From NCBI GenBank assembly GCA_964398185.1, contig CAYNML010000003.1, positions 16,303 through 80,302 on the forward strand: DNA of 64,000 bases, written 5' to 3'. The position numbers and the translations under genes are program-made. Position 1 is the first letter of the stretch. Every line of letters begins with the position of its first letter. The notes under the pieces were generated by a model. It saw only the letters and a program-made list of their open reading frames with translations, made no database searches and was not told the DNA's origin. This DNA comes from an uncultured Anaerolineae bacterium. Its GTDB lineage: Bacteria; Chloroflexota; Anaerolineae; Fen-1058. Below are positions 15,026 to 60,009 of this stretch, one piece after another.

Positions 15026-15032
15026 CGAAATG

Positions 15033-15114
15033 TTCAATGATCAATTTTCAATGATCAATGCGTGGTTCGCCCCATCGGTCATTGGTCGTTGATCATTGGT
15101 CATTGATCATTGAG
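15033..15114. repeat. long imperfect palindrome of TGATCAAT/ATTGATCA words in the dnaK-dnaJ spacer
   Basis: CAATGATCAATTTTCAATGATCAATG faces CATTGGTCGTTGATCATTGGTCATTGATCATTG; low GC; starts 8 nt after the dnaK stop. Confidence 0.65.
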
Positions 15115-28701: not shown

Positions 28702-28725
28702 GATGCGGTTCCTCTCTGCCTGAAG

Positions 28726-30276: not shown

Positions 30277-30375
30277 GGTGTTACTTCTCCTTTGGATGTT
30301 AGCCGCAATTATAAACCATTTTGCGCGTGCGTCCGGGGTGGAACCACGGCGGGAAATGACGGGGTGATTGACAGG

Positions 30376-31923: not shown

Positions 31924-31958
31924 TTGCCGTTCTCTGATACTTGATCCCCGCACCTTGA

Positions 31959-41491: not shown

Positions 41492-42184
41492 CTACATCTG
41501 GCCGGTTTCCAGGCGATAGCCGTAGTTGCGCACGGTGCGAATCAACTGCGGATGCGCCGGATCGACTTCCAACTTGCGGCGCAGGAACCAGATGTAGCGG
41601 CGCACGTAGCCGCTGTCGATGCCGCGCAGCGCGCCCCACACCGTTTCGCGCAAGCGCGCTTCGGAGACGGCTGTGTTGGCGTTTTCCACCAGGCATTGCA
41701 GCAGGCGAAATTCAGTGGGGGTCAGATCGATCTGCCGTTCGCCGCGGGTGACCTGCCGCCGATCGAGATCGATGACCAGTTCGCCAAAGGCGTAATGGCG
41801 CTGCGCATTGGACTGGCGGGCCTTCTCCGCCCGATTGAGCACGGCCTCAATCCGGGCATTCAATTCCATCAGGCTGAAGGGCTTGGTCACGTAGTCGTCA
41901 ATGCCCAGGTTGAAACCGCGCAGCTTATCCACTTCGCTGTCTTTGGCCGTGACCATGATCAACGGCACATCGGAGAGTTCGCGCACACGCGCCGCCATTT
42001 CCCAACCGTCCATGCCCGGCATCATGATGTCCAGCAGGATCAGATTGGGGCGTTCGTTGAAGAGCGCGCGCAAGCCTTCAATGGCCGAGGCCGCTGTGAG
42101 CGGCATGTAGCCCGCTTCGCGCAGCGCGGTGGCGAGCAGTCGCACGATGTCGGGATCGTCATCAACGATCAGGATCTTCTTCAT
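41492..42184 (-). CDS. OmpR-family response regulator (receiver + winged-helix), no cognate kinase adjacent
   Basis: receiver motifs (ILIVDDDPD, LILLDIMMPGMDG, receiver Lys in TAKD) and the C-terminal OmpR/PhoB wHTH. Confidence 0.9.
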   Translation of the reverse strand: MKKILIVDDDPDIVRLLATALREAGYMPLTAASAIEGLRALFNERPNLILLDIMMPGMDGWEMAARVRELSDVPLIMVTAKDSEVDKLRGFNLGIDDYVTKPFSLMELNARIEAVLNRAEKARQSNAQRHYAFGELVIDLDRRQVTRGERQIDLTPTEFRLLQCLVENANTAVSEARLRETVWGALRGIDSGYVRRYIWFLRRKLEVDPAHPQLIRTVRNYGYRLETGQM

Positions 42185-42262: not shown

Positions 42263-42289
42263 AAAAAAAGGCCGCACGCAAGCGCGGCC
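42263..42289 (-). terminator. intrinsic terminator after the beta-helix gene (GGCCGCGC-TTGC-GTGCGGCC + TTTTTTT on minus strand)
   Basis: 8-bp stem with one mismatch, followed by a 7-nt U-run. Confidence 0.75.
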
Positions 42290-42402: not shown

Positions 42403-44565
42403 TCAACGGCGGCGGATCACCGGCATGAAAATCTTGAAGTCCGAAATCTCCGGCACAACCAGCACCCAGCGGTTGAGCGAGCCGCTGGCGGCGCCGGCGT
42501 TGCAGACTTCCAGTCGCCAGGTACCATTGATGCTGACGCCGACAAAGCGCTGCAACGGGGTGGTGGGCTTGTACGTGTTTTCGTAGAATGGCGAAGCAGT
42601 ACTCTGATTGCCCGCCGGCACGATTTGCGCGGCGCTGTCGTCGAATAACGTGTCCAGGTCCTGGCCGCTGTTGGCGGCTGGCCCAAGCAAATAGGCCGAG
42701 CGGTAGTTGGGCGCCAGCAAACGGACGGTCAGGCTGCCCCGATCGCCATAGGTGAGATTGACGCCGGTCAGCAGGCGGCCGACGGCGAACTGATCGCCGA
42801 TGGGAAGCAAGCTGGTGATGCACTGGCCTGCGCCGATATCGATGGGACTGGGGTTGGAATAGCCGGCGATTTCATAGGCGCCGCGATCACAGATGTCAAA
42901 CTGCGGCCGGGCGATGCTGCGCTGATCGATGGTCAGCGGGCAGGGGACAACGGCGGTGTCCTGCGCCGGGCTGCCGAAGCCGATCGCGCGGGTGAGCGAG
43001 TTGCCGCCGTTATCGCGCAGCGGACCTAACTGCGGATCCGTGTTGATCAGATCGTTGGCTTGCGCGAAGCCGCAGGTGTTACCGCTGTCGACGTTATGGT
43101 TCGCTGAGGTGATGCTGCCGCTGCAGGCAGCGCCGGTGCTTTGCACCAGCAGGGAATTACTTACCGTCACGTTCCCGCCCGCGCGATTAAGCGCCGGGGC
43201 GCTGTTGTAACTGATGGTGCTGAATTGGATGGTGAGCGTGCCGCTCATGTTGTGCACGGCGCCGCCCGCCGCCGCGGTATTGTTGCTGATGGTCGCATTG
43301 GTCAGCTGCGCCGTGTTGGCATTGTACAAGCCGCCGCCCTGAAGGGAGGTGGCCGCGTTGTAGAGCAGCGAACTGCGCGTAACGGTGAGCACGCCCAGGT
43401 TGCCGATGCCGCCGCCTCGTGCGGCGGCGGTGGTGTTGCTGAGCACGCTGCTATTTTCCAGGTACAGGCGGCCAGCGTCAGAGTTATACAACCCGCCGCC
43501 GGTGTCGTCCGCCAGGTTGTTGCGCACCGTCAGATCGGTCAAGGTGGCAGTGCCATTGTTGAAGAGGGCGCCGCCGGTATTGATGGAGTGGTTGGCCTGA
43601 AAGGTGACATCGTTTAGGGTCACGTGTGCGGAGGCTTTGTTATAGATGCCGCCGCCGCTAACGAGGGCCAGGTTGCCAGAGATCAGCGAGCCGCTGCTAA
43701 TGAGGATGCCCTCGTTGTAGATGCCGCCGCCGTCGGTTCCGATTGCGCGGTTGCCGCTGACGACGCTGTTCACAAGCGTGGTGCGTCCGTTCACGCTGCG
43801 GTTATAAATGCCGCCGCCGTATTCACCGATCGTTTTGTTGTCGGCAACGAGGCTGTTGGTCAGTGTGAGGACATTGATGGTGCTGATGCCGCCGCCGCGT
43901 TGTGCTTCGTTATTGCTCACGGTGACGTTGATCAGATCAGCGAAGCCGGTATTCCACATGGCGCCGCCTTCGCTGGTGCCCGTCGTGCTGGCGTTATTGC
44001 TGCGCAGCATGACGTTGGTCAGTTTCAGGACGCCCTGGTTGAAGATGCCGCCACCAAACGACGCCGTGTTGCTAAGAATGTTGCTGTTGGTCAGCGTCAG
44101 GTAAATGTTGTCCTCGGTGGCGATGCCGCCGCCCGGCTGATCGGACTGGCCGCGCTGGATCGTGACGTTGGCGATGTCGACCGTCATGGACGGCAGGCTT
44201 TCTCGTTGAATCGACAAGACCTGATAGAGGTCGTTGCCGTCCAGGAAAGTGGTGCTGACCGATTCACCGTTGAGCGTGAGGTTGCGATCGATAATGGTCA
44301 GTTGTTCGATATAGGTGCCAGCGGCGATATTGATGATGTCGCCGGACGCGGCGCGATCAATGGCGATCTGAATGTGCTGGCAAGGCTGCTGGGGCGTGGT
44401 ACAGGGGTTAGAGTCGTTGCCGGTGACGGCGACGTACCAGTTTACGGCCGCGGGCGCTGAAGCGCTGGCGCGCGGCAGCGCCGCCCAGGTCACTAACAAC
44501 AATCCGGCAACAACCAGCCGGAGTACGGGGGTGGCGCTTGGCCGGAGAATGGATGGTGTATTCAT
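42403..44565 (-). CDS. secreted right-handed parallel beta-helix repeat protein with a C-terminal proprotein-convertase P-domain-like module
   Basis: signal peptide; many GGGIYN/GGAI-type beta-helix rungs; C-terminal GSLTVRLLAPNY...GTWRLEVCNAG...RWVLVV resembles a P-domain. Start at the ATG 44565 (GAGG SD) rather than the TTG at 44577. Confidence 0.65.
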   Translation of the reverse strand: MNTPSILRPSATPVLRLVVAGLLLVTWAALPRASASAPAAVNWYVAVTGNDSNPCTTPQQPCQHIQIAIDRAASGDIINIAAGTYIEQLTIIDRNLTLNGESVSTTFLDGNDLYQVLSIQRESLPSMTVDIANVTIQRGQSDQPGGGIATEDNIYLTLTNSNILSNTASFGGGIFNQGVLKLTNVMLRSNNASTTGTSEGGAMWNTGFADLINVTVSNNEAQRGGGISTINVLTLTNSLVADNKTIGEYGGGIYNRSVNGRTTLVNSVVSGNRAIGTDGGGIYNEGILISSGSLISGNLALVSGGGIYNKASAHVTLNDVTFQANHSINTGGALFNNGTATLTDLTVRNNLADDTGGGLYNSDAGRLYLENSSVLSNTTAAARGGGIGNLGVLTVTRSSLLYNAATSLQGGGLYNANTAQLTNATISNNTAAAGGAVHNMSGTLTIQFSTISYNSAPALNRAGGNVTVSNSLLVQSTGAACSGSITSANHNVDSGNTCGFAQANDLINTDPQLGPLRDNGGNSLTRAIGFGSPAQDTAVVPCPLTIDQRSIARPQFDICDRGAYEIAGYSNPSPIDIGAGQCITSLLPIGDQFAVGRLLTGVNLTYGDRGSLTVRLLAPNYRSAYLLGPAANSGQDLDTLFDDSAAQIVPAGNQSTASPFYENTYKPTTPLQRFVGVSINGTWRLEVCNAGAASGSLNRWVLVVPEISDFKIFMPVIRRR

Positions 44566-44633
44566 ACTTGGCCTCAACGGACAGGATGTGAGAGTGACTG
44601 TGTGCCGGCAACCCGTGAGAGCCGGCTTTGCGC

Positions 44634-45704
44634 TCAGCGTCGAATCAGCGGCAGGAAAATGTGCTCGCCCAATCTAAGCAGCGTAGCCGCCAATATAACG
44701 TTGTTGTTTTCGGCAGACTCGACGTTCAAGCCCTGGCTGCCGCCCAGAGCATCAACCAGCAAGTAGATGTCGTGCCGGCCGTTGACGGGGTTGAGATCGT
44801 GCTCGGCGGTGAAGATGACGGTTTGGCCCGGCAGTACCGGGGACAGCGGATTCGTGGTAGAGATGCCACACGACGATTCGGGAATCATGCTGCACCAGCT
44901 ATCCGTCAAGTCCAACGGCCCGGCAGGCGGCAAGAAGGGCGCAATACGATCATAGAGATTGATGTAAGGCGGCGCCCAAGCCGTCATAGGCCCGTTGTTA
45001 CGGATTGTGGCTGTGACGTAGATGTGATCGTTCTGGCTGCGCACGGTTGCGGTGAAGATCTCCAAGTCGGGTCTGGTCAAAACGGGTGGCACCAGCCTTG
45101 GATCCCACAGCCAGGTTGACGCGTTAAAGCGATAACGTTGGTCCGAATCCACTTCAGGGACCACATCCCAGGAAATGGCGCCGGGTGTGGTGGCCGTGGG
45201 CGCGAAGCCGCTGGTGCCTACATACGTATAGGGGTCAGCAAAAGTGAGCGTTCCCAGGTAACGGTATGGCTGATTGTTGCTGGCGGCTTGCGTGATCAAG
45301 ATTTGACTGCCGAAACGCAGGGCGCGCTGGCCGGTTTTGTATTCGTAGTAGAGATTGGCCTGTGGACCGGTGATGATCAGCGTCGGGCCGGGATCGATGC
45401 GGTAGTAGGTGATGGGCAGCGCCACGCTGATCTCATAAGCATCGGACGGCAGTGGAATGTCAAACGTGTAGGAGATGACTTGATCAAGGGTTCGAAACTG
45501 CCAGCGTGAAATCAGCCCCGGCGTCAACGCGACGGTTGAGGTATACACCGTAATTGTGACGATGCGCGTATAGGTGTAGTCAGGCCGGGCTGGCGCTTGT
45601 CTGCTGTGGTTGGATCGGGGTGAAGAGTAAACGGCGCCGGCCAGGAGCAGTAGCGCCACGCCGGCTACGAGAAACACCGTGGTCAGATGGAGCATTCGTC
45701 TCAT
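44634..45704 (-). CDS. hypothetical secreted protein (CARDB-like beta-sandwich region)
   Basis: N-terminal signal anchor; IYVTATIRNNGPMTAW resembles CARDB; otherwise unassigned. Confidence 0.45.
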   Translation of the reverse strand: MRRMLHLTTVFLVAGVALLLLAGAVYSSPRSNHSRQAPARPDYTYTRIVTITVYTSTVALTPGLISRWQFRTLDQVISYTFDIPLPSDAYEISVALPITYYRIDPGPTLIITGPQANLYYEYKTGQRALRFGSQILITQAASNNQPYRYLGTLTFADPYTYVGTSGFAPTATTPGAISWDVVPEVDSDQRYRFNASTWLWDPRLVPPVLTRPDLEIFTATVRSQNDHIYVTATIRNNGPMTAWAPPYINLYDRIAPFLPPAGPLDLTDSWCSMIPESSCGISTTNPLSPVLPGQTVIFTAEHDLNPVNGRHDIYLLVDALGGSQGLNVESAENNNVILAATLLRLGEHIFLPLIRR

Positions 45705-45829
45705 AGTTCACCTGGGGTACAGGCAAGGACAATCGCGTTTCAAGGCACAGAATAACACTGGCGGGCGAACGCGCCTGTCACATGCACAAGCTCGCTGCCC
45801 GCCAGTGTACTACTGAATGGCCGATTTGA

Positions 45830-47887
45830 TCAACAGTCGTTTCCGCACGAGGTCGCGGTCGGTGACGGTGACGGCGTCCGGGTGGGCGTCCGCGACGGTG
45901 TCGGCGAAAGCGTCCGGGTGGGCGTCCGGGTGGGCGTCCGCGTCCAGGTCGGTGACGGCGTCAGCGTGTTGGTCGGCGTCCATGTGCGCGTCGGCGTTTG
46001 TGTGCGCGTCGGCGTCAGCGTGTTGGTCGGCGTGCGCGACGGGGTCAACGTGATCGTCGGTGTGTTGGTGCGCGACGGGGTCAACGTGATCGTCGGCGTC
46101 CGGGTGCGCGTCGGTGTCACGGTGCGCGTCGGCGTCTGCGTAATCGTCGGCGTGCGCGTCACCGTGGGCGTGCGCGACGGCGTCGGCGTAATCGTTGGCG
46201 TCGCCGTCCGCGTGGACGTGGGCGTGAAGGTCGGCGTCGGCGGCAAGAACCGGATCGTCCGCTGAATGCGCGTGTACTGCCGGTGCGGATCGTTGTCGCG
46301 CGCGCGCATGGTGATGGTGTATGTGGTATTGGCCGTGATGGGCGACCCGTTGGGCCAGGCATAGGCGCTGATGGCGTTGCACGTGGTGCCGTTGTCGCCG
46401 CCGAGACACCAAGGCGCAGAATTTTCTGTTTGAGAATAGATGGGCGCGCCGCCGCTGGGGTCATAGACGGCAAAGTAGACCTGGGTGATATTGCTTTCCG
46501 CTGCGGCGGGCGCGGGCGGGCCGTCGCGCGCAATCGCTTCCACTGTGAAGGTGGTGCTGGTCACTTGCGAAAGCATATTGGGTGTAACGATAGGGCCGTA
46601 GCGCCCACGCAAATCGAGTTGGCAGGTCAGATTGCCCACGGTGTAATCCAGGTGAATGATCCAGTCCCGGCCATGACGATAGATCTGATCGGCCGAACCG
46701 CGCAGGCTGGCGGTGAAGTCGAGCATAAAGTAGCCGTTGGTGCCGGTATCGATCACAAAGTTGCCCAAATTGTCGGTGAACGAGCTGCCCAGGTTGAGCG
46801 CGCGATTGGCAGGATCGAGAAAAGTCGCTCCGCTCCACTGGTAGTTGTCAAAAGTCACACTCGGGTTGGCAACGACTTCATCATGCCAGATGCTGGTTGG
46901 ATCGGCCGAACCAGGCCAGCTCACCGTGGCGGACGTCAGGCCAATCGTGTAGTTGGAACTGGTATTGATCAGGTAGGCAGACACCTTGTCGTTGGCGCTG
47001 CTCGTCATGAATAGATTTTCGTTCGCGTCATAGCCCAACATTTCGCAGCTCGGCGTGGGCGTGTTGGTGGGCGTGATCGTGCGCGTCGGTGTGCGCGTCG
47101 GTGTGCGTGTGGGCGTGTTGGTCGGCGTATTGGTCGGCGTATGTGTATAGGTCGGCGTCGGCGTATCGGTCGGCGTGCTGGTCGGCGTGTCGGTGGGCGT
47201 GTGCGTGAAGGTCGCCGTCGGTCCCATGATGGTGGGCGGCAGACCCTGAATACGGACTGTGCGGTACTTCTCCACGATCATCTCGCGCCGTGCGATCAGC
47301 GGCACCCAGTCGGCGATGGCGCGCAGCGGGGTGATGAGCGGGTGATCAAACAAGACCGTAATCGTCACACGATCGCCTGGTCCGCCCGCATCTTCTTGTT
47401 TGGTTTCCGTGTTGAACAAGACGCAGCGCGGATGTGGCGTGGTGGACGTACCGCCATAGGGATTTTCCCGGTAGGAGAATTTGGGATCGCCGTTTTCGTC
47501 CAGCCGGCTGCTGCAGATCACAGTATCGATGAAGCTGCGGGCATCACGGGGTGCTGTGTAGTCCACCAGAATGCCGTTGGCCGCGCCTTTCGCAATGTCC
47601 TCGATCGTCAGCAGACGAGCGTAGTCTTCAGCTGGCTCGCGCACTGTCGGATCGCTGCTGTTGCAGGCGGCCGTGCAGTAGGCTTCGCTGAACTCGCCCG
47701 TGACGGCATAGCGCACGGCTTCGCGCGCCGAGTTTTCGACGATGAGCCAGGCGGAGAACAGGCGCGCGACTTCGATCAGGAGCATCAGGAGCAACAACAG
47801 CACCGGCAGGATCAGCGCGAACTCAACCAGCGCCTGACCCCGGCTGCGCCGCCGCGATGCGAATCGAGAATGCGAATGTGTCTTCAT
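45830..47887 (-). CDS. TadE-like (class III signal peptide/pseudopilin-type) protein with two Thr-Pro repeat regions and a central beta-rich domain
   Basis: N-terminus RGQALVEFALILPVLLLLLMLLIEVARLFSAW matches the TadE-like consensus; about 57-aa and about 140-aa (T/S/R)PT repeat tracts. Confidence 0.6.
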   Translation of the reverse strand: MKTHSHSRFASRRRSRGQALVEFALILPVLLLLLMLLIEVARLFSAWLIVENSAREAVRYAVTGEFSEAYCTAACNSSDPTVREPAEDYARLLTIEDIAKGAANGILVDYTAPRDARSFIDTVICSSRLDENGDPKFSYRENPYGGTSTTPHPRCVLFNTETKQEDAGGPGDRVTITVLFDHPLITPLRAIADWVPLIARREMIVEKYRTVRIQGLPPTIMGPTATFTHTPTDTPTSTPTDTPTPTYTHTPTNTPTNTPTRTPTRTPTRTITPTNTPTPSCEMLGYDANENLFMTSSANDKVSAYLINTSSNYTIGLTSATVSWPGSADPTSIWHDEVVANPSVTFDNYQWSGATFLDPANRALNLGSSFTDNLGNFVIDTGTNGYFMLDFTASLRGSADQIYRHGRDWIIHLDYTVGNLTCQLDLRGRYGPIVTPNMLSQVTSTTFTVEAIARDGPPAPAAAESNITQVYFAVYDPSGGAPIYSQTENSAPWCLGGDNGTTCNAISAYAWPNGSPITANTTYTITMRARDNDPHRQYTRIQRTIRFLPPTPTFTPTSTRTATPTITPTPSRTPTVTRTPTITQTPTRTVTPTRTRTPTITLTPSRTNTPTITLTPSRTPTNTLTPTRTQTPTRTWTPTNTLTPSPTWTRTPTRTPTRTLSPTPSRTPTRTPSPSPTATSCGNDC
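45833..46255. repeat. about 420 nt of imperfect tandem repeats (period about 18-36 nt) encoding the C-terminal TPTxTxTPT tract
   Basis: direct inspection (GGCGTCCGGGTGGGCGTC..., GGCGTCAGCGTGTTGGTC...). Confidence 0.75.
47048..47221. repeat. tandem repeats encoding the central TPTDTPTSTPT...TPTRTPTRTPT tract
   Basis: direct inspection. Confidence 0.7.
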
Positions 47888-47922
47888 AAGTCTTCCACCC
47901 ATCCAGCAGTGTATCAAGGCCG

Positions 47923-49572
47923 CTAGCCCGAAATGCGCGTGAAGATGCGCCCCGCAATTTCCAGGAAAATGCGTTCCAGCCCATCGGCGTCAGGGGCATA
48001 GTAATAGTTGCCACATTGGATGCCCAACGCGGCATCATCGCCCCGGCCATCCGGATCAATCTTGGTTGTGTTATTGCGGTTGTTGTTGGGATCCAGACAC
48101 GGGCCGGTATCGAGCCGCCCATCATCACCCACATCGGCGACGTAGCGGAGCAACTGCTCGCCGGCATCCGGATCACCGTACTGCGGATCCGGACTGGTGC
48201 AAATCGCCGGCGCTCCGCCTGTTGGCGGCGTATAATTACCCGTCAAGCACACCGAGTTCCTGCCCAACGCGATGGTGTACACCAACACCCCTGCTGAACC
48301 GGCGCTGGGGTATAGATCTGGATCCAACCCCAACACATCGGCGAAATCGCGGGCGTAATCGTCCGAATCATAAAGCTGCGACGGATCCGAGTCCTTGTGG
48401 CGGGAATTCACATCGGCGTCACGGCACTTGAGCCGCGTGGTACGTTCTGACAGCGGGCAAATGCCATACTGCGGATCTGACCAGGGAATAGTGCCATAGG
48501 CCGAAGTGCGATTTGCCGGGCCGTCCACGAGCACGATCGTCACCCAGAGCGAGTCAGCACGATAGGGACTGGCCAGGCCAAACTCATCGTGCGCCCGAAT
48601 CAGTCCCGCACCGATGTTACTGGAGCCGCACTTCCACTTGTCCTCGGCAGGCGTCCCTGAGTTGCAGAGAACGTGACCGGTCGGGTTGGGCTGTGACGCA
48701 TTCGACGGTGGGACATACACATCCATGTTGTTGATGGCCGTTAAGGCATCGACCAGTTGATACCCCATCGGGAACAGGCGCTCGGCATTTTCGTTGAACG
48801 TAATCAACCCGATCCGATCGTAGTTCTGATACAGGCGCTGAATGAAGGCAATGGCGGCTTCTTTGGTCTTGCGGAACGGCTGGCAAATGCCGCGCGTCAA
48901 GCCCGGATAATTCGGATCGGGCGCGGTGGCTACCCCATTGCAGCCGCCGGCCGGAATCACGACACCATTCTCCAACGTGCCGCCGTTCAGGCAGGCATAC
49001 ATGTCATTGATCTTGTTCTGACTGCAATTGCTCCGCCACGGTTCCGGCAGTTGGTCGAAACTGTAAGCTTGTGACTCTGAGTTGTCCAGTACCAGCACGG
49101 CGTCTACTGAAGCGGCCTCGGAGATATTCGTACCGGCCACTTCAACAGCCGGGACACCCACGATTCCCAGGAAAAGCATGGGGACATGGGCAGTGGCTAC
49201 CACGCGCACCAGCTTGCGCTGCGGTTCGCCCGGATCTGGACACAAATCGGGATTGTGCACTGACGGGAGACCCAGACTGCACGTCTCTACCGTCACCGAC
49301 GGTGTGGGAATACCGTGCGAAACCACCAGTTCATGAGCGGCCTTCACAATCTTGTCAGCCGTGGCGCCACGCTTAAACTGCGCTGTCGCCGCCAGGCCGG
49401 CCGCATCGACGGCGCGGCGCAGCTCGCCGCGCACCACGAAGACGCGGGCCACATCGACGACAATGCCGGTAAAGGCCAGCAACATGATGAAGCCCATCGC
49501 AATCAAGACAATCGCTTGTCCGCGCTGCGGGGCGGAAGTTGTATCCATGGAATGAGTTGTTTTTTTCTTCAT
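47923..49572 (-). CDS. TadG-like protein: N-terminal Tad pseudopilin-like segment plus von Willebrand factor A domain
   Basis: RGQAIVLIAMGFIMLLAFTGIVVDVARVF (TadE/G-like N-terminus); MIDAS-like DxSxS (VLVLDNSES); many Cys. Confidence 0.65.
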   Translation of the reverse strand: MKKKTTHSMDTTSAPQRGQAIVLIAMGFIMLLAFTGIVVDVARVFVVRGELRRAVDAAGLAATAQFKRGATADKIVKAAHELVVSHGIPTPSVTVETCSLGLPSVHNPDLCPDPGEPQRKLVRVVATAHVPMLFLGIVGVPAVEVAGTNISEAASVDAVLVLDNSESQAYSFDQLPEPWRSNCSQNKINDMYACLNGGTLENGVVIPAGGCNGVATAPDPNYPGLTRGICQPFRKTKEAAIAFIQRLYQNYDRIGLITFNENAERLFPMGYQLVDALTAINNMDVYVPPSNASQPNPTGHVLCNSGTPAEDKWKCGSSNIGAGLIRAHDEFGLASPYRADSLWVTIVLVDGPANRTSAYGTIPWSDPQYGICPLSERTTRLKCRDADVNSRHKDSDPSQLYDSDDYARDFADVLGLDPDLYPSAGSAGVLVYTIALGRNSVCLTGNYTPPTGGAPAICTSPDPQYGDPDAGEQLLRYVADVGDDGRLDTGPCLDPNNNRNNTTKIDPDGRGDDAALGIQCGNYYYAPDADGLERIFLEIAGRIFTRISG

Positions 49573-49615
49573 AAGTCAATCGCTACCTGTTCAGATCTCT
49601 TGAGTGCCGGGCTTA

Positions 49616-50335
49616 TTACGGTCCCAAGCTGGGCGGCGCGGCCGAAGGCAGTGGCATCATCGTGTAAGCGTGCATCACGACTTCTTGCGGCAGAATGGGC
49701 ATGCCGGGCGGAACCAGCCCCAGGAACTGATGATGGTGCCGATAGATTTCGACAATCACCAGGCCCGTCGCGGGGCTGTCGGGGCTGTTGGCCAACATCG
49801 CCTCCACCGCCTCGGTCGAAAAGCGCGAAGATGCGGCCTGGCAGCCGTTCTTGGTGATGTGCGTGCAATACGACCAGCCTTGATCGTCAGACGTTACCAA
49901 GCCATCGCAATTGTTTGGCAAATAGGCAGGCCCATGGGGCGGACAAGTCTGCGGAAAACGCGCCACCACGTTCCCGGTCGCATCAACTGTAAAGGCCGAC
50001 ACGACGATGTCGTCGGTGAGATCGTTGAACGAGATCCCGAAAATGTTCTGTTTGGCCAGGCACGCGGCTTGATGGTAGAAGTTGTCGTCGCATTTCTGGC
50101 TTGGTTCCAGTGCCAGAATCAAGTCGCCGTCGGCAGCATAGCGAGCCGCTTCGCGGGTAGCGTCCAGAATGGTGAGGTAATCGTTGAAATATTTGCCGAC
50201 CTCCAGCGTCCCGGCCATGATCAACAGTAGAATGGGAAACGCCAGGGCCATTTCCACCATGCTCTGTCCACGCTCACGATGCGGCTTGCGACGGCTGCTC
50301 AATTGGCGTAATTTTTGGATAATTTGATCTTGCAT
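49616..50335 (-). CDS. TadE-like protein
   Basis: RGQSMVEMALAFPILLLIMAGTLEVGKYF; AAGAGG SD before the ATG at 50335. The longer ORF to 50407 would run into the promoter-like AT-rich region. Confidence 0.6.
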   Translation of the reverse strand: MQDQIIQKLRQLSSRRKPHRERGQSMVEMALAFPILLLIMAGTLEVGKYFNDYLTILDATREAARYAADGDLILALEPSQKCDDNFYHQAACLAKQNIFGISFNDLTDDIVVSAFTVDATGNVVARFPQTCPPHGPAYLPNNCDGLVTSDDQGWSYCTHITKNGCQAASSRFSTEAVEAMLANSPDSPATGLVIVEIYRHHHQFLGLVPPGMPILPQEVVMHAYTMMPLPSAAPPSLGP

Positions 50336-50405
50336 GGCAATTTGCCTCTTGCCAGATATTGTAGAACCCATGTTCGTTTCCGTTGAAACATTCTTTCCAC
50401 ATAGC

Positions 50406-50414
50406 ACTATACCA
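50406..50414 (-). promoter_or_regulatory. candidate extended -10 (TGgTATAGT on minus strand) inside the AT-rich island 50336-50534
   Basis: sequence match; the region is about 42% GC against about 65% for the genome. Confidence 0.3.
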
Positions 50415-50534
50415 CCATCACGACAGAATATCTTTAGGATTTAGGTCACTATTGAGGGTGAAACTGAAAACGGGGAACGGTCTTATGACACAATCAAGAC
50501 AAATTGCAGCTCGGCTACGGATAGGGAATTTGTA

Positions 50535-51233
50535 CTAGTGGATGGTTGTGACCAATTCTTCGCCAAAGCGGGCGCCGTCAGGCATGATAGCCCCTGTCAG
50601 ATTGGCATCGGTCAAAGTTACGTCGCTGTGAAAAATGCCACGCAGATTGGCGCCCGTGAAGTTGGTACCTTCGATCGAGGTGTGGCTGAGATCCGCATTG
50701 CTGAGGTTGGCATAGGACAGATCGGCCCCGCGCAGATCGCTGTGGCGCAGATCACTGCCGCTGAGATCTGCGCCGCTCAAGTTAGCCGAGGTGAAGTCGC
50801 AGCTAGCCAGCTTGGCGAAGGCCAGATTGACGCCGTTGCCGCTGGCGCCGCGCCAATACGCTTCATTAGCGATGACCTCGCTCAGCTTGGCAAAGGTTAG
50901 CTGGGCGTTGGCCAGGTTCGCGCCGGCCAGGATGCAGGCGTTCAACACCGCTTCCTTGAGATTGGCGCCCGTCAGATCGACGCCGCTGAGATTCGCGCGC
51001 ACCGCGCGGGCGCGACTGAGATTGGCCCCAATCAAAACGGCTCCGGTCAGATCGGCTTCGGTTAGATCGGCCAGGCTGAGATCGGCGTGGCCCAGCTTGG
51101 TGTTGCGCAAGTTCGCATGGCGCAAATCGATTTCGGCCAGATCCAGCTCGGTGAGATCAAGCCCGCTCAAGCGTGGTCGTTCGCCGGCGCTGATCAGGGC
51201 CAGCAGCAATTCTTTGCGTGTCAGCTCAGCCAT
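50535..51233 (-). CDS. pentapeptide repeat protein
   Basis: continuous A(D/N)LxG-type pentapeptide repeats (ANLSGADLSGSDLRHSDLRGADLSYANLSNADLSH). Confidence 0.85.
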   Translation of the reverse strand: MAELTRKELLLALISAGERPRLSGLDLTELDLAEIDLRHANLRNTKLGHADLSLADLTEADLTGAVLIGANLSRARAVRANLSGVDLTGANLKEAVLNACILAGANLANAQLTFAKLSEVIANEAYWRGASGNGVNLAFAKLASCDFTSANLSGADLSGSDLRHSDLRGADLSYANLSNADLSHTSIEGTNFTGANLRGIFHSDVTLTDANLTGAIMPDGARFGEELVTTIH

Positions 51234-51505: not shown

Positions 51506-52360
51506 ATGCGGCATTCGTTTGTCTCTACTCAGCGTTCGTGGTTGGTGTGGCTGGCGTTGGCGGCTATGTTGCTGGCGACCCTGGCCTGCGGTTTTGAAGG
51601 CGGCGCGTTTGGCTCCACCCCCACACCGGCGGCCAACCGGGTTGTGCTTCCCAACGTAGGCGGAGCACCGTCCGGCTCGGCAGCTGCGCCAGATCTAGCG
51701 CAAGCTCCGGTCGAGGGGATTCTGATTATATCGCCGCAGCCCGGCCAGGGCGCGCGCGGCACACTGCGGATTGAGGGCTTGAGCGATCTGGCGCTGGCGC
51801 AGCAGCTCAACGTCGTGGTACGCGATGCGGCCGGCACGGTCATCGGCGCAGCCCGACCGGCCACTCAAGCCCCGGCGGACCAACGCAGTTCATTTGCCGC
51901 CGAGGTTGCCATTCCGGCCGAGATCGCGCCACAGGCCGGTCGCGTGCAGGTCTATGCCGTTTCACCGGGGAACAACGCCGTCACGCACCTCGCCTCGGTC
52001 GAGGTCGAACTGAACAGCGACAAGCAAATCAAGGCCGCCCCGATCGATCCGCAAACGCCCGAGGCCATCGCCATGATCTTCCCCAGCCCCAACGCGGAAT
52101 TGAAAGGCGTGGCGCGCGTGGCCGCCGCGACGATGCTAGGCCCCAAGATCGTCATCGAAGTGATCGATGCCAACAATCAGAGCGTAGGCCGCGTGGAGCA
52201 GACCGTCGAGCTGACCGCCGGCTCGCCGGGACAAGTAATGGCCGAAGTGCCGATCAAAGTTTTAACCGCCGGGCCGGGCCGCGTGCTGGTGTATGCCGTC
52301 AATGCGCGCGACGGTGCGACGGAGCATTTGAGTTCTGTGGAAGTGAATCTCGTTCCGTAA
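51506..52360 (+). CDS. secreted/lipoprotein candidate with two Ig-like (Gmad2-like) repeats
   Basis: signal peptide ending LLATLAC; two about 90-aa repeats ending VQVYAVSPGNNAVTHLASVEVEL / VLVYAVNARDGATEHLSSVEVNL; AGGAGAG SD. Confidence 0.5.
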   Translation: MRHSFVSTQRSWLVWLALAAMLLATLACGFEGGAFGSTPTPAANRVVLPNVGGAPSGSAAAPDLAQAPVEGILIISPQPGQGARGTLRIEGLSDLALAQQLNVVVRDAAGTVIGAARPATQAPADQRSSFAAEVAIPAEIAPQAGRVQVYAVSPGNNAVTHLASVEVELNSDKQIKAAPIDPQTPEAIAMIFPSPNAELKGVARVAAATMLGPKIVIEVIDANNQSVGRVEQTVELTAGSPGQVMAEVPIKVLTAGPGRVLVYAVNARDGATEHLSSVEVNLVP

Positions 52361-52430
52361 AGCGTGCTGCGTGCAACGTAATGCGTAAAACGCAACAACC
52401 GTTATAACGCTGCATGTTTTACGCTTCACA
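52361..52430. repeat. iterated-word palindrome (GCGTGC..GTAATGCGTAAAACGC / GCATGTTTTACGCTTCACACGC) in the lipoprotein-A2M spacer
   Basis: begins at the TAA stop; GCGTAAAAC faces GTTTTACGC. Confidence 0.55.
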
Positions 52431-52445
52431 CGCAAAGGAGTTGTC

Positions 52446-55400
52446 ATGACTACCGCCAATCCGCCGCGTTCCTCCAATCGCACACCGTTGATCATCGTGG
52501 CTGTCGTCGCCGTCCTTGCGCTGATCGCGGGCGGCGTGTTCCTGGCAACCCGCAAGTCGCCGGAAAAGGTCGTGCAGGAACTGGTGGCGCAGCTGCCGCC
52601 CTTCGTGATCGATCGCGCGCCCGCGCGCGGCGAAGAGCAGGGCACCGAAGCGCCCATCACGCTCTCCTTCGACAAGCCGATGGATCGCGCCTCGGTCGAG
52701 CAGGCGTTTGAGATCACGCCCCGGGTGAGCGGTGCGTTCAAGTGGAATGGCGACAACACGCAAGTGTCGTTCGTGCCGACGGGCGAGGGGTTTGCGCGCG
52801 GCGAAGTGTACAGTGTCAACGTGCTGACCACGGCGCTGGCCGCCAACGGGATGATGCTGGGCCAGCCGCTGCAATTCACCTTCAAGGCCGTGGGCTTTCT
52901 GGCTGTGACGCAGGTGATGCCCGCCGACGCTGCGGAAGGCGTCGATCCCGATACCGACATCACGGTGATGTTCAATCGCCCCGTCGTGCCGCTGGCGCCG
53001 ATCGAGGAACAGGCAAATCTCCCGCAGCCGCTGGTGCTCGATCCGCCGGCGCCAGGTAAAGGCGAATGGATCAACACGTCGATCTATGTGTTCCGCCCGG
53101 ATGATCGCTTGCAGTCCGGCATCAAGTACACCGCCAAAATCCCGGCGGGCTTGCAAGATCCGTTGGGCGCGGAACTGCGTGAAGATGTGGTGTGGTCATT
53201 CACGACGATGACGCCGCAGGTGATCGCCACCGGGCCGACGGACGGCGAGAGCGATGTGTGGCTCGATCGATCAATCCAGGTGGTCTTCAGCCAGCCGATG
53301 AATCATGCCAGCGTTGAGAGCCTCTTCTCGCTGCGGCAGGGATCGCCCGATGGGCCGCCAGTGCCGGGCGCCTTTACGTGGGTCACCTCGACTATGGTGA
53401 ACGATATGCTGCCGATGGGCATGAGCGGGATGATGACGGCGCCGCAGTTGGGCGGCGGACGCGCTTCGTTCCTGGCGGAGACGCTGATCTTCTCGCCGAC
53501 CGATCTGCTGGCGCGCGAGACGCCGTATTTCGTGAAACTGGCCGCAGGCGCGCAGGGCGCCAGCGGCGGGCTGCCCATGCCGTATGACTTCCAGTGGTCG
53601 TTCACGACGGTGAAACCACTGTATGTCATCCGCACCGATCCGGTCGATGGCGGCAGCGCCGCGCCCTACGCCTCGATGGACATCTACTTCTCCGCGCCGG
53701 TGGATGAGAAGACGCTGCAATACGTCACCACCTCAGCGGAGATTTCCCCGACGAACGTGTACACCTACTACAGCGACTACGACAATCGCTACGTTTACGG
53801 CTTTGGGCCGGGGCCGTCGGGCGAGTATCAAGTGACCATCGGGGCGCAGGTAGCCGATCGGTGGGGGCAGCCGCTCGGCGCCGATCAAGTGATCAACTTC
53901 CGCACGCGCCCGCTGCCGCCGGAGCAGTGGTTCGACGTGCCGGGCCGCTTCGGCGTGTACGGCAACTACACTGACACCGTGATCTATGCGCGCTATCGCA
54001 ATGTGTCGCAGCTGGACTTGGAGCTGTATCAAGTGTCGCTGGCGGAGTTCGCCTATCTCATCGGGCCAGAATCGTGGTCACGCTGGGATCAGGCGGTGCC
54101 CGTCAACGGGCCGCCGGTGCGCGTGTGGAGCGTGCCGGTCAATAAGCCGCTGAACGAAGCGGGCTTGATTCGCATTCCGGTGGAGAGCGATGCGGGCGGC
54201 GTGTTACCTACGGGCATCTACCTGATCCGCGTCACCTCGCCAGAGCAGCAGCAGAATGATTACGGCGGTATCACGCGCCACTTGATGGTGGTGTCTGATA
54301 ACAATGTCACTTTGAAAGCTGCCGATAAAGAAGGGCTGGTGTGGGCCACGAATCTCCAATCGGGTCTTGAGACCGCCGGAGTCCCGATCAGCATTTACGA
54401 TCCGGATTTCAATCGCTTGTCAGCGGGCGCGACGGATCAAGCAGGTCTATATCGATACGATGTTGAAGCGCAGCGCGATCCCAATATCAGCTTGATGGCC
54501 GTGCTGGGTGACTATGGCGGGCCGTTTGGCGTGGCGGTCAGCGATTGGAACGCAGGCATCGCGCCGTGGGACTTTGGGGTGTATGCCAATTACTACGCCA
54601 GCGTGTACAACGCTTATCTCTACACCGATAAACCGATCTATCGACCGGGGCAGACCGTGCACATCAAAGGCATTGTGCGCATTGAAGACGATGCGCGCTA
54701 TGCGATTGATCCGAATCTGAAGTTGATCGATGTGTTGATCTACGACGCGCAGGGCAAGCAGGTGTACACCGGCACACAGGCGTTGAATGATTTCGGCGCC
54801 TTCAACTTTGATTTTGATCTCGATGAAGAAGCGGCGCTGGGCGGCTATTCGATACAAGCGCAGATTCCGGTGCGCTATCCGGGGCAGGATGTGCCGATCG
54901 TGCAGTATTACAACGGCAATTTCGTGGTGGCCGAATATCGTCGGCCGGAGTTCCAGGTGACGGTGACCGCGGCACAGGACGAAGTGCTGCAAGGCGAAAC
55001 CATCGACGTGGAAGTGGAGGCGAGTTACTTCTTCGGCGGCGCGGTGGGCAATGCGCCCGTCAACTGGTCGGCGGTTGCCAGCGATTACTATTTCGATCGT
55101 TACGACGGGCCGGGCTATTACGATTGGAACGACATCGACTACAGCGGCATTTATGATTCGTCGCGCGGCGGATTGATCGCTTCCGGCGAAGGCCAGACCG
55201 ACGCGCAGGGCAAGTTCAAGATCAGCCTGCCCGCCCAGCTCGACGAGAAGACCGGCAGCCAGACGTTCAACATCGAAGCGGCCGTGACTGATCTCAACGG
55301 GCAGTACGTGGCGAATCGCGTCAGTGTGATCGTACACCAGGGCGAATACTACATCGGCGTTGCGCCCGTCGATTACGTGGGCACGGCGGGCCAGCCCATG

Positions 55401-58400
55401 GACTTCAATCTGCTCACGGTCGATTGGCAGGGCGATGCGATCGGGAACAAGAATCTCGACATCGTGTTCTACCAGCGCGAGTGGTTCAACGTGCAGGAAC
55501 AGGACGACTTCGGCAACATCATGTGGACATGGTCGTTCAGCGATACGGCAGTGTTCACGACGACGGCCACCACTGGTACAGCCGGCAAAGGCATTACGTC
55601 GTTCACGCCGCCCAACGGCGGTGAATATCGCGTGGTGGCGCGCGGCGTCGATGGCAAGAACAACAAGATTTCGTCGGCGACTTACGTGTGGGTGTCGAGC
55701 GAAGAGTACGTGTCGTGGCGGCAGGACAACAACGATCGCATCTCGCTGGTGGCGGACAAGAAGGAATACACGCCCGGCGACGTGGCGAAGATTCTGATCC
55801 CGTCGCCGTATCAGGGGCAGGTGCGCGCGCTAATCACCACCGAGCGCGGCCGCATCCTCGATCAACGGGTGATCACACTCCAGACCAACAGCGATGTGAT
55901 CGAGATTCCCATCACCCCGGCGCTGGCGCCCAATGCCTTCGTGTCGGTCGTCCTCGTCAAGGGCGTCGATCAAAACGATCTCGCGCCGTCGTTCAAGATC
56001 GGTTACGCCTCGTTCAAGGTGAATCGCGCCGCGCAGGAACTGTATATCACGCTGACCCCCGATCGCGATCCCCAGACCGAGCACTATGCGCCGCGCGACA
56101 CGGTGACGTACACCGTGCAGATCGAGAATTACGCGGGCGAGCCGGTGCAGGCGGAAACGTCGCTGGCGATGGTCGATCTGGCGGTGCTCTCGCTGCTCGA
56201 TCGGTTGAACGTGCCCATCGCGGATCACTTCTACGGCGAGCGCGGCCTGGGCATTCGCACCGGCATCTCGCTGGTGTACTCGGTCGATCGCATCAACGTG
56301 AAGCTGGCAGAAGAAGCCAAGGGCGGCGGCGGCGGCGCCGATGCGGCCGGCGGCTTCAGCGTGCGCGGCGATTTCCGCGACACGGCCTTCTGGAAGGCTG
56401 ATGTGACGACGGATGCCAACGGCCTCGCGACGGTGTCGTTCACGCTGCCGGATAACCTGACCACATGGCGCATGTCGGCGATTGCGATCACGAAGGACGG
56501 ACTCGTCGGCGAAGGCCAATCGGAAATTAGAAGCACGAAGGACTTGCTCATCCGCCCGGTGACGCCGCGCTTCATGATCGTCGGCGATCAACTCAACATG
56601 GCGGCTGTCGTCAACAACAATACAAGCAATGACATCACGGCGGACGTGTCGCTGGAAGGCACGGGCATCACCATCGACAACGGACAGGTGAAGCAGAGCG
56701 TGACCGTTCCGGCGGGCGGCGCGGTGCGCGTGGACTGGCCGGTGACGGTGCTGGATGCGGAGTATGCCGATCTCACCTTCAGCGTGCGCGGCGGCGGCTT
56801 GCAGGATGCGAGCAAGCCCACGGCGGGTCTGCCGCCCGATCAGCATCTGCCCATCTACAAGTACAGCACACCGGACACCACCGCGACGAGCGGCAACGTG
56901 ACGAAAGAAGATCCGGTGCGCACGGAAGTCATCGTGCTGCCCAAAGCGATCGATACGACGCAGGGCGATCTGAAAGTGCAGATCGATCCGTCGCTGGCCG
57001 CCGGTTCGACGGAAGGCTTGAAGTACCTGGAGCACTATCCATATGAATGCACGGAACAGACGGTGAGCCGCTTCCTGCCGAACGTGTTGACCTATCGGGC
57101 GTTGAAGGACCTGACTCTGTCCGAGCCGGAGTTGGAAGAAAAACTCGAGCGGCTGGTGCGCTTTGGCGTGCAGCGGCTCGCCAATCAGCAGCACGTCGAC
57201 GGCGGCTGGGGCTGGTGGGTGACGGACAAGTCGAATATGCAAGTGACCACCTATGTGATGTTCGGCTTGATCAAGGCGCGGCAGGCGGGCTTCGCGGTTG
57301 AGCAGACGATGCTCGACCACGGCCTCAACTACTTGATCAGCAACTTGCAGCCGACCACGTCGCTCGCTACGCCGTGGAAAGCGAATCAACAGGCGTACAC
57401 GCTCTATGTGCTGGCCGAAGCCGGCAAGCCGCAGAACAGCGCGTTGATCTCGCTGTATGACGACAAGCGCGCGCTGCTGGGCAACTATGGCAAGGCGTTG
57501 CTGGCGCTGGGCCTGAACCTCGCGCAGCCTAATGACAAATCTCGCGTCAACACACTCATGAGCGACATCGTGAGCCAGGCCAAGACCAGCGCTACCGGCG
57601 TGCACTGGGAAGAGCAGGATGTGTACTGGGGCACGTGGGAAACCGATCTGCGTTCGACGGCGACGGTGCTGGACGCTTTTGCGCTGCTCGATCCCAAGAA
57701 TCCGCTCGCGCCCAACGTGGTGCGCTGGCTGATGAATTCACGTATCGAAGGCCGTTGGGCTTCGACACAAGAGACCGCGTGGACATTGATCGGTTTCACC
57801 GACTGGATGCTCGCCACCGGCGAACTCACGCCCGACTATTCGTGGGCGCTGAAGTTGAACGACGCCGTCGTCGGCACGGGCACGGCCACCAGCGAGAACG
57901 TGCGGCAATCGGCGATTATCACAAAGTCGATCAGTGAGTTAAATGTGCCGGTGAATGTGTTGACGTTCGAGCGTAAAGCAGCAGAAGGCCAATCGGGCGA
58001 CGGGATGATGTACTACTCGGCTTACCTGCGCGCGTATCAACCAGTGACGGGTGTGCAGTCGCTGTCGCGCGGCATCGTGATCGGGCGGCAGTATTACGAT
58101 CAAGGCGATGCGTGCTTCAAGCCGTTGAAGCCGGGCGAGAAGGCCATCCCTTGCACGCCGGTCACGACGGCGAAGGTGGGCGATACGCTGGTCGTGAAGT
58201 TGAGCATCGTCGCGCCGACCGATCTGTACTACGTGCTCGTCGAGAGTCCGCTGCCCGCCGGGATGGAAGCGGTGGACACCAGCCTCAAGACCACGTCGCA
58301 GATCGCGGAAGGACCAGAGTTCGGCCCGGCGAATCAACCGTACACGTTTTACGGCGGCTGGGGCTGGTGGTGGTTCACGCACACCGAACTCCGCGACGAG

Positions 58401-59294: not shown

Positions 59295-59690
59295 TTACGC
59301 TTTGATGCGTGTCTGCCAATCATCTGCGATTATCTGATACACCGCCTCGGCTGCTCGTAGTGGATCATAAGCATCGGCCTCGACTATCTGTGGCATATCA
59401 CCAGGATAACGCGCCTCCACAGCCCAGACCGAGAGCGCGTACAGATTGGGAAAAGTCGCTTTCACCTGCCAGTCAGGTGGCACGATTTCGCGCAGGCGGT
59501 CCAGATCGTGCGTGAAGGGGAACTCGACTTCAAGCAAAACCAGTACAGCCTTAAGGGCCTTTTCGGCAGCCTGTTGCGCCAGGAAACACACCTGTCGCGG
59601 GTAATGATCAGGATCACGCAACAAGGCGTTGGCGGCATCCAGATCAGAGCGGGCATAAGCCAGCCACCGTCTTGATTCAGGGACGTTCAT
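59295..59690 (-). CDS. hepT: HEPN-domain toxin (HepT-like)
   Basis: HEPN fold with the Rx4-6H-like motif region; overlaps the upstream MNT gene by 14 nt. Confidence 0.8.
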   Translation of the reverse strand: MNVPESRRWLAYARSDLDAANALLRDPDHYPRQVCFLAQQAAEKALKAVLVLLEVEFPFTHDLDRLREIVPPDWQVKATFPNLYALSVWAVEARYPGDMPQIVEADAYDPLRAAEAVYQIIADDWQTRIKA

Positions 59691-60009
59691 AGATCACTTT
59701 CCCTTCTCTTAAGGCGGGGCGCAGCACGTCGCCGATGATGTTCCCTCGTGCAACTATTTCCTCAGGCGTGGTGACGATGATGTCCTTGCTGGCCGGCAAG
59801 TCGCTTAGCGCATTGCCAATGCGCACCGCGACCTGTCGTTTATTTTCCACGTAAGGCAGAACCACCAGCAAGTCAATATCACTGTCCGGGCGCGCATCGC
59901 CGCGCGCCCACGAGCCGAACAGGATGATGCGCAGCGGATCGAACTGCCGCGCGATGCGCCGGACAGCTTCAGCGAGGCATTCGGGTTGCGTGACGGGTGA
60001 CACGGTCAT
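59677..60009 (-). CDS. mntA: minimal nucleotidyltransferase antitoxin (MntA-like)
   Basis: NTase motif ILFGSWARGDARPDSDIDLLV; paired and overlapping with the HEPN gene. Confidence 0.8.
   Translation of the reverse strand: MTVSPVTQPECLAEAVRRIARQFDPLRIILFGSWARGDARPDSDIDLLVVLPYVENKRQVAVRIGNALSDLPASKDIIVTTPEEIVARGNIIGDVLRPALREGKVIYERP

Follow-up and report, generated by a model that had tools for sequence, protein, structure and literature searches.

The closest described relatives of the locus treated here are minor pilins at the tips of Tad pili. In Myxococcus, KilL, KilM and KilN, the homologues of TadE, TadF and TadG, form interchangeable heterotrimeric tips that prime pilus assembly and depend on the prepilin peptidase; of the four interchangeable Tip clusters, three are located apart from the kil core (PMC12075869). 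The Caulobacter protein CpaL is a minor pilin with a domain of the von Willebrand factor A (vWA) type, and has been modelled at the Tad tip together with CpaJ and CpaK (PMC12607857). The C-terminal peptides of PilY1, PilC and MshQ dock in other type IV filaments, and CpaL does so in cis; for Tad, only this cis complementation has been described (PMC12918778). The core Tad clusters of Anaerolineales, pilA-cpaB-cpaE-cpaF-tadB-tadC, contain no pseudopilin genes (PMC4877987), and therefore pseudopilins are expected elsewhere in these genomes. The subject of this analysis is a gene cluster on the minus strand of a 64,000-nucleotide stretch of DNA (the window) from an uncultured Anaerolineae bacterium. 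Three consecutive genes, the triad, encode a small TadE-type protein, a TadG/CpaL-type protein fused to a vWA domain and a large modular TadE-type protein. The triad is likely to be the minor-pilin tip or initiation complex of a Tad (type IVc) pilus whose motor, platform, Flp pilin and prepilin peptidase would be encoded elsewhere. It is read in this way because its features match those of the Myxococcus KilL/M/N and Caulobacter CpaJ/K/L tips.

A preliminary description of the locus, made from the letters of the window, had recognized three TadE/TadG-type N-termini and a vWA domain on one of the pilins, and had suggested running the TadE (PF07811), Tad (PF13400) and VWA models. The three N-termini are present as quoted, and all three models give matches above their Pfam gathering scores. 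The two TadE-type proteins score 52.7 and 49.2 bits (cut-off 22.9), the TadG N-terminus scores 28.4 bits with Tad (cut-off 22.3; 2e-6), and VWA_2 is found in the same protein with 28.1 bits (cut-off 27; 3e-6). A sub-threshold match of Peptidase_M24 to the TadG N-terminus was disregarded as spurious. Homologues are annotated as Anaerolineae, Thermoflexales or Chloroflexota.

The predicted leader ends in ...RERG/QSMVEM in the small TadE and in ...QRG/QAIVLI in TadG, where the slash marks the expected cut. Both TadE proteins have a G/XXXXE-type site followed by a hydrophobic helix (RG/QALVEF and RG/QSMVEM). These motifs are strongly conserved: [RK]-G/Q-x-x-V-E-[FLM], with Gln+1 and Glu+5, is present in 102 of 103 TadE homologues, and all 73 TadG homologues have [RK]-G/Q-A-[IL]-[VI]-[LI]-[IV], which is without Glu+5.

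The vWA domain of TadG has an intact MIDAS (metal ion-dependent adhesion site) of the DxSxS type, D163-N-S165-E-S167, and D163 and S165 are invariant in the homologue alignment. An AlphaFold2 (AF2) model of the protein (predicted local distance difference test, pLDDT, 77; predicted template modelling score 0.73) shows a long N-terminal helix at residues 16-67, a small sheet and a vWA fold. Its best Foldseek matches in the PDB are PitA, the modular pilin PilB of Streptococcus sanguinis and Mfa5, which are pilus-tip vWA adhesins. The intact MIDAS and these matches support the adhesion role that had been proposed for the module; the idea that it is unusual in being an orphan with borrowed N-termini is not supported, as described below. 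The last six residues of TadG, FTR[IL][ST]x, are conserved, and T545 and R546 are invariant.

The large TadE consists, in order, of a pilin module (to about residue 225), a first Pro/Thr linker, a beta-rich domain (residues ~291-551), a second linker and the sequence CGNDC. The Pro/Thr repeats, the beta-rich domain and the cysteines had all been noticed before. However, the repeats were described as one region of about 200 aa, and they form two tracts of ~180 aa in total (DNA positions 47050-47202 and 45860-46242) that flank the beta-rich domain; the cysteine motif is not at the end of that domain but after the second tract. The pilin module is conserved in 72-74 of 75 loci and the central domain in only 11, and thus the central domain appears to be a variable displayed module. 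A PDB sequence search with the large TadE gave nothing significant. In orthologues, the Pro/Thr linkers reach several hundred residues. Most of these orthologues (L006-L086) end in C-x(1-5)-[DE]-(G)-C, for example CFDC, CSDC or CPGGGFDC, to which CGNDC (45830-45850) corresponds here, and ~15 have GGG, PGGG or PAGG in place of the Cys motif.

The distribution of the triad was determined in 80 loci from species-representative genomes, all Chloroflexota, which were retrieved by alignment of TadG-vWA homologues; open reading frames (ORFs) were called and clustered. The order small TadE (~220 aa), TadG-vWA (~520 aa) and large TadE (420-1390 aa) is kept in ~75 of the 80, and in 32 loci the triad adjoins a gene for an A24 prepilin peptidase (Pfam PF01478). 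In one locus, L039, the triad is followed directly by genes for an RcpC/CpaB-like protein, TadZ (REC + ParA), CpaF (T2SSE 1.2e-62), TadB and TadC. This is the only locus with a CpaF-type ATPase, as judged by the T2SSE signature and a Walker-A scan of 1.39 Mb, and so the only one of the 80 in which the triad is within or beside a tad locus; the window triad is not. The conserved order, the A24 adjacency, the core linkage in L039 and the rarity of a nearby ATPase together show that the triad is a bona fide Tad component, which in the Anaerolineae is normally encoded apart from the machine. The terms ‘orphan’ and ‘borrowed’, which implied something unusual, therefore do not fit: the same triad recurs in nearly all related loci, almost always away from ATPase and platform genes, and in many of them it is next to the peptidase.

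The window has no Flp, CpaF, TadB/C or prepilin peptidase gene detectable by Pfam scans and by a search for Flp-like ORFs, as had been stated, and a Flp-like ORF was likewise not found in 86 loci (six-frame pattern G-X3-4-E-[YF] plus a hydrophobic run). Other window genes encode, by Pfam, chaperones, glycosyltransferases, an ATP-binding cassette (ABC) exporter, LysM/SdrD proteins and alpha-2-macroglobulin, and none belongs to the tad core. A complete tad locus just outside the window, of which the cluster might have been the distal end, was looked for and is not present in the 6.6 kb to the left or the 8.6 kb to the right. There is no reason to expect a secretin, since Chloroflexota are increasingly viewed as monoderm (10.1101/2025.08.19.671072, Litorilinea preprint). 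Gene clusters c52, c34 and c67, which adjoin the triad in Leptolinea-type loci and had been suspected by size of being a tad core, look on sequence inspection like an ABC sugar transporter. Similarly, c5 resembles GlmS, and c4 appears to be MurA-like (the c4 gene of L006 is EPSP_synthase by Pfam).

Some genomes have two full triads, in tandem or divergent, or an extra TadE-TadE-TadG set without vWA between the A24 peptidase and the main triad (L023, L009, L045, L055, L059, L062, L065, L070 and L083). Such arrangements point to a choice of several tip sets for each pilus system, and they recall the four Tip clusters of Myxococcus.

What the sequences show is the identity of the domains, the conserved cleavage motifs, the synteny, the linkage of the triad with an A24 peptidase gene in many relatives and with the tad core in a single one, and the conservation of the promoter region. 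The pathway can be pictured as follows. The prepilins would insert into the membrane, and an A24 (TadV/CpaA-type) peptidase would cut after the conserved Gly in [RK]-G/Q. The three N-terminal helices would then bundle to give a heterotrimer, which would nucleate polymerization of Flp on the TadA/B/C machine and remain at the tip of the filament. There, TadG would show its MIDAS-containing vWA domain as an adhesin, and possibly as a force sensor, and the large TadE would show its lineage-variable beta-rich domain on Pro/Thr-rich linkers. The two secreted proteins encoded downstream would be clade-specific accessories from the same operon. Trimer formation, tip location and adhesion are what we infer for these proteins, and a core machine in this genome is assumed because only 79 kb of contig (the window with its two flanks) was covered.

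Several observations weigh against a tip complex. The TadG subunit is without Glu+5, and in the AF2 monomer its C-terminus is a helix (residues 529-548, pLDDT ~73) and not a CpaL-like beta-strand. As many as 79 of the 80 related loci have no ATPase within 10 kb, and the 79 kb of contig contains no Flp, CpaF, TadB/C or A24 gene.

The cluster appears to have its own promoter. The preliminary description had placed the start of transcription in an AT-rich island just 5′ of the small TadE gene, which it contrasted with a 65% GC background. The island is indeed AT-rich, but the GC content of the whole window is 61.4% and other promoter spacers in the window are equally low (35.8% and 41.2%). Its extended -10 element is present as described; a sigma-70 scan omitted this element because it has no -35 match. 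For a phylogenetic footprint, the regions 5′ of the small TadE gene were aligned from seven species, whose TadG identity is 40-62%. Two elements are conserved, GGTATA.T and a 17-nt box, TGACYTAAATMCTAARG (50432-50448). The box is unique in the window even with up to three mismatches allowed, and one copy is found at the same position 5′ of the triad in L007, L008, L009, L012 and L014. Conservation of the box and the -10 element supports transcription from the island, and the operon is therefore driven by a regulated promoter of its own.

A related box, TGACAAATCCTTA(TAAACTCCTTA), with a TGGTAT-type -10 element is found at the same distance and position in eight loci that are more distant. Six of them are of the Thermoflexus type, and in five of these six, response-regulator genes are just 5′ of the triad. 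The Thermoflexus-type box resembles a direct repeat with 11-nt spacing, AAATCCTTA-TAAACTCCTTA. Two-component genes, i.e. OmpR-type regulators and large sensors, are directly beside the triad in ~20 Anaerolineae loci, including L057, L067, L069, L072, L086, L050, L064, L068, L074 and L075. In the window, the OmpR-type regulator encoded past the terminator (Table 1) is a possible candidate for the regulator of the operon. Rfam has no match in the whole window at gathering scores and none in the island at E <= 1. An inverted repeat, GTTTC-N4-GAAAC (50372-50393, minus strand), is found past the -10 element in the 5′ untranslated region (UTR) and is kept in the four closest species (the window, L007, L008 and L011). 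It could be a regulatory hairpin or could reflect mere relatedness.

The minus strand from 42403 to 51233 has six co-directional ORFs, five of which (42403-50335) are 3′ of the AT-rich spacer. Gene starts were refined from Joint Genome Institute (JGI) gene calls on identical metagenome contigs; the small TadE starts at ATG 50335, with AAGAGG just ahead. The six genes had been presented as one cluster, and their coordinates hold. The pentapeptide-repeat gene is not part of the pilin module, however; it is kept 5′ of the operon only in the nearest relatives. The cluster ends, as had been noted, at a strong intrinsic terminator, GGCCGCGC-TTGC-GTGCGGCC followed by T7. The stem is at 42289-42270, and the terminator is 115 nt past the final stop codon, that of the 720-aa gene.

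Table 1. Coordinates of the tip-pilin operon and associated features in the window
Feature	Position	Strand	Basis or remark
Pentapeptide-repeat protein	50535-51233	minus	ORF list and JGI gene call; Pfam Pentapeptide 1e-47
AT-rich spacer with promoter region; 5′ UTR ~65 nt	50336-50534	minus	199 bp, 42.2% GC vs 61.4% for the window
17-nt box TGACCTAAATCCTAAAG, candidate transcription-factor site	50432-50448	minus	~20 nt 5′ of the -10 element
Extended -10 element TGgTATAGT	50406-50414	minus	GGTATA.T without variation in the 7 species aligned
Small TadE-type minor pilin, 239 aa	49616-50335	minus	Pfam TadE 5.5e-13; JGI gene call
TadG/CpaL-type minor pilin fused to vWA, 549 aa	47923-49572	minus	Pfam Tad and VWA_2
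Large modular TadE-type minor pilin, 685 aa	45830-47887	minus	Pfam TadE 4.6e-14
Secreted non-pilin protein, 353 aa	44634-45695	minus	Two beta-sandwich domains (AF2)
Tail codons HIFLPLIRR, 353-aa protein	44637-44663	minus	Sequence; conserved in family
Secreted beta-helix protein, 720 aa	42403-44565	minus	Pfam P_proprotein 7.7e-7; NCBIfam choice_anch_Q
Tail codons KIFMPVIRRR, 720-aa protein	42406-42435	minus	Sequence; kept in orthologues
Intrinsic terminator	42263-42289	minus	8-bp stem, 7 G-C pairs, loop TTGC, then T7
OmpR-type response regulator, past terminator	41492-42184	minus	Pfam Response_reg and Trans_reg_C

The two genes downstream of the triad encode proteins that are restricted to the closest clade. 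The 353-aa protein has a Sec-type signal peptide by inspection, and its AF2 model (pLDDT 77.7) shows two beta-sandwich domains and an unstructured tail. It had been called CARDB-like. At the sequence level the call is weak (Pfam CARDB, PF07705, 15.8 bits vs a cut-off of 22.7), but there is a weak fold match of the C-terminal domain to the CARDB structure 3idu, with a template modelling score of 0.63. Only 39 homologues of the protein were found, on contigs that match in size those of TadG homologues. The 720-aa protein also has a Sec-type signal peptide by inspection, followed by PMP-like repeats, a choice-of-anchor Q domain (NCBIfam NF041518, residues 514-570, 56 bits vs a cut-off of 25) and a P-domain, and its earlier identification as a beta-helix/P-domain protein is borne out by P_proprotein (29.6 bits vs a cut-off of 21; 7.7e-7). 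Members of the choice-of-anchor families carry varied C-terminal anchors. Apart from the background GC content, the domain order of the large TadE and the weak CARDB call, the preliminary description of the locus is accurate.

Both accessory proteins end in a short tail with the consensus h-[YF]-[LM]-P-h-h-R-R, or in broader form h-[YF]-[LM]-P-[LVI]-[IVL]-[RQK]-[RK]. HIFLPLIRR and KIFMPVIRRR are the only two matches in all six frames of the window among ORFs with 100 aa or more; the flanks have no terminal copy, and the one match there is internal to an ORF. In the family of the 353-aa protein, no other C-terminal segment is as well conserved as the tail, and L351 and P352 are invariant. In both proteins the tail is outside the folded domains, and the folds of the two are unrelated. 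It also ends orthologous beta-helix proteins, a remote beta-helix protein of L053 and more unrelated proteins encoded beside triads. In addition, it is found at the end of non-pilin PKD-vWA proteins (...IYLPVLQKSS and ...VYLPLIRTSP), whose vWA module shares 53-63% identity with the TadG one and in which a Sec signal replaces the pilin N-terminus. In a CarboxypepD_reg-like family encoded 3′ of the triad in ~10 other loci, the motif is just after the signal peptide, i.e. at the mature N-terminus.

PKD-vWA paralogues (L010:6661-12648, P0004 and P0037-P0046) combine the YLP tail with PKD repeats and either one or two vWA modules. Like the one in L015, they are encoded away from any triad; L010 and L008 belong to the same metagenome-assembled genome.

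In the 80 loci, the terminal motif is present in 15 of 186 ORFs that are co-directional and downstream of triads and in three of 638 elsewhere (odds ratio 18.6, Fisher p=5e-8, a test that ignores phylogeny). A metagenome scan for [FY]LP[LV][IV]RR followed by a stop codon gave 105 stretches, which include ~25 unrelated 7-codon matches in 47%-GC contigs as well as TGG read-throughs, and 39 long, tail-bearing ORFs for secreted proteins, of which many are beta-helix-like. TadE/TadG genes were not detected on the contigs of these 39 ORFs, of which only four had at least 4 kb upstream, most being too short for a test of linkage. On one of the metagenome contigs (L185:391-2123), the gene for a 266-aa secreted protein ending in VFLPVVRR comes directly after that for an A24 prepilin peptidase, with SecF adjoining. 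The tail has about six hydrophobic residues before RR and is without a transmembrane segment, and it fails an LPXTG/PEP-CTERM-type signature. No known sorting domain in Pfam or NCBIfam matches it at E <= 1, and when the motif was searched for in the literature, nothing but frog temporin peptides came up.

This raises the question of what the tail does. There is close to an even chance that the downstream genes are unrelated neighbours and that the tail is a general envelope-anchoring or sorting motif of Chloroflexota, with no link to the pilus beyond co-expression of surface proteins. The many unlinked examples favour a general motif, that is, the 39 metagenome ORFs, which are on unrelated contigs with no detectable TadE/TadG gene nearby, and the PKD-vWA genes of L010 and L015; the choice-of-anchor Q domain of the beta-helix protein points in the same direction. 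Such a motif is harder to reconcile with the enrichment beside triads, even though the p-value is uncorrected for phylogeny, and the enriched ORFs belong to non-homologous families from several lineages. Moreover, the motif is N-terminal in one family and C-terminal in others, unlike a processed sorting signal, and it has no transmembrane segment of the kind found in LPXTG or PEP-CTERM signals. It should be pointed out that a general motif would concern the accessory genes only and is compatible with a tip complex formed by the triad.

It is possible, though doubtful, that the tail instead acts in trans as a donor beta-strand, by which cargo other than pilins is docked onto the minor-pilin tip complex of the Tad pilus. 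It would then be for Tad what the C-terminal peptide is for PilY1 and MshQ. Docking is favoured by the presence of the motif at either terminus, the absence of a transmembrane segment and the enrichment beside triads. The cargo may include the CARDB-like, beta-helix, PKD-vWA and CarboxypepD_reg-like proteins.

Two further explanations bear on the triad itself. In line with the preliminary description, the three proteins might serve in surface display independent of a pilus, i.e. be anchored in the membrane by their N-terminal helices and hold adhesion domains outward with no filament. The triad almost never adjoins an ATPase or platform gene, no core gene is found in the 79 kb here, and the very long Pro/Thr linkers of some orthologues could span a thick envelope. 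On the other hand, the motif at which prepilins are cleaved shows strict conservation, and the two TadE paralogues both have Glu+5, the A24 peptidase is adjacent in 32 loci, the triad of L039 is directly linked to cpaF-tadBC, and the stoichiometry and order of the three genes match those of known tip trimers (PMC12075869, PMC12607857), all of which makes display of this kind improbable. More improbable still is a secretion pseudopilus, in which the triad would cap a short Tad-type piston that pushes tail-bearing, Sec-exported proteins through the outer layers of the envelope and does not build a long adhesive fibre: such proteins are 18-fold enriched directly 3′ of the triad, many are beta-helix or enzyme-like, and tip pseudopilins of type II secretion systems engage cargo (PMC12918778), but the module on TadG is a classic adhesin, related Chloroflexota, namely a Caldilineae isolate, have been seen to bear Tad pili (10.1101/2025.08.19.671072), and in three independent cases from metagenomes, comprising four loci whose upstream sequence is long enough, the tail proteins have no triad nearby. 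A tip complex of a Tad pilus thus stays the preferred reading of the triad.

Anaerolineae are dominant among the filamentous bacteria of anaerobic digesters, activated sludge and sediments, and the Tad pili that they carry are believed to be responsible for aggregation and the structure of flocs. To our knowledge, published descriptions of these pili cover the core cluster only (pilA-cpaBEF-tadBC). The locus would supply the missing set of minor pilins, as a conserved and separately regulated module with lineage-variable displayed domains, and can be regarded as a Tad tip-pilin operon of an Anaerolineae type. As far as the literature was searched, three of its features have not been described: the tail motif, the CxDC with which the large TadE ends, and the conserved box in the promoter. 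Should the docking strand prove correct, beta-strand complementation in trans would extend to Tad pili, and the tail would be a simple sequence tag with which to list pilus-tip cargo across Chloroflexota. Anaerolineae could then fit one pilus with changeable adhesins and enzymes, and there would be two ways to present the vWA module, fused to a pilin or on a protein docked by its tail. The same system of adaptable tips would include the CxDC terminus and the promoter box, which the response regulator encoded nearby possibly reads. If the tail is a general envelope anchor, it would still be a signal for sorting or attachment that has not been described before, and this in a phylum with a poorly understood envelope.

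Other features of the window deserve mention. Divergent from the cluster and 5′ of it (51566-58571, plus strand) are genes for a Gmad2-domain protein and a bacterial alpha-2-macroglobulin of 2041 aa. The same pair is beside the triad in L007, L011, L012 and L013; only Gmad2 falls within L008. A toxin-antitoxin-like gene pair, HEPN and nucleotidyltransferase (MNT-type), is at 59295-60009 (minus strand). Four tandem paralogues of secreted proteins are encoded at 28144-34268 (minus strand), three with LysM and SdrD_B domains (516, 589 and 769 aa) and one of 185 aa with SdrD_B only; these look like a separate family of cell-wall-binding surface proteins. A 648-aa ORF at 13091-15037 (minus strand) matches the Pfam family NAD-GH (PF10712; 2e-179), and is exactly antisense to dnaK (13118-15025, HSP70 9e-266). 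PF10712 is known as an artefact family that was built from antisense ORFs of this kind. The real gene at this position is dnaK, in an hrcA-grpE-dnaK-dnaJ operon.

With respect to known systems, the actinobacterial TadE/TadF/TadG-like proteins (Rv3654c-Rv3655c) provide the nearest NCBIfam models, TadE_Rv3655c and tadE_like_DECH, and their hosts are also considered monoderm. However, the window proteins score only 16-24 bits with these models (cut-offs 40-51), and the actinobacterial pseudopilins are small and encoded inside the tad locus. PilY1, PilC and MshQ resemble the two accessory proteins in that they are large Sec-exported non-pilins encoded directly 3′ of minor pilins, with a conserved C-terminal peptide of ~10 residues outside the folds. 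The folds differ: the accessory proteins have no beta-propeller, but beta-sandwich/CARDB-like and beta-helix/P-domain folds. In addition, the motif found here is also N-terminal and present on many proteins encoded away from pilin genes, and docking is only predicted. S. sanguinis PilB, the second-best Foldseek match of TadG (E=1.3e-6), similarly has a vWA adhesion module grafted on a pilin module, and both hosts are considered monoderm, with no secretin (10.1101/2025.08.19.671072 for Chloroflexota). PilB, however, belongs to a type IVa pilus, has a PilD-type class III signal, is ~11% identical and comes from another operon context.

CpaJ/CpaK/CpaL of Caulobacter crescentus share with the triad a TadG-like pilin with a MIDAS vWA domain that accompanies two small minor pilins (PMC12607857, PMC12918778), and the extreme C-terminal residues of the vWA pilin are conserved in both systems. 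The sequence similarity is confined to the Pfam Tad and VWA models. Moreover, the vWA domain here is without the inserted beta-rich domain of CpaL, the triad is outside the tad locus, and the AF2 monomer has a C-terminal helix where CpaL has a strand that complements its own pilin sheet. With KilL/M/N the differences are that the vWA domain is on the large subunit here, whereas KilN has an uncharacterized domain; that there is a second subunit with long Pro/Thr linkers and a CxDC terminus; that tail-bearing non-pilin genes follow the triad; and that the host is a non-predatory filamentous Chloroflexota. The likeness to the Myxococcus tips is nevertheless seen at the level of organization: in both, three minor pilins are co-operonic and one of them is large and modular, the clusters can be off-core, several sets occur, and the displayed domain varies.

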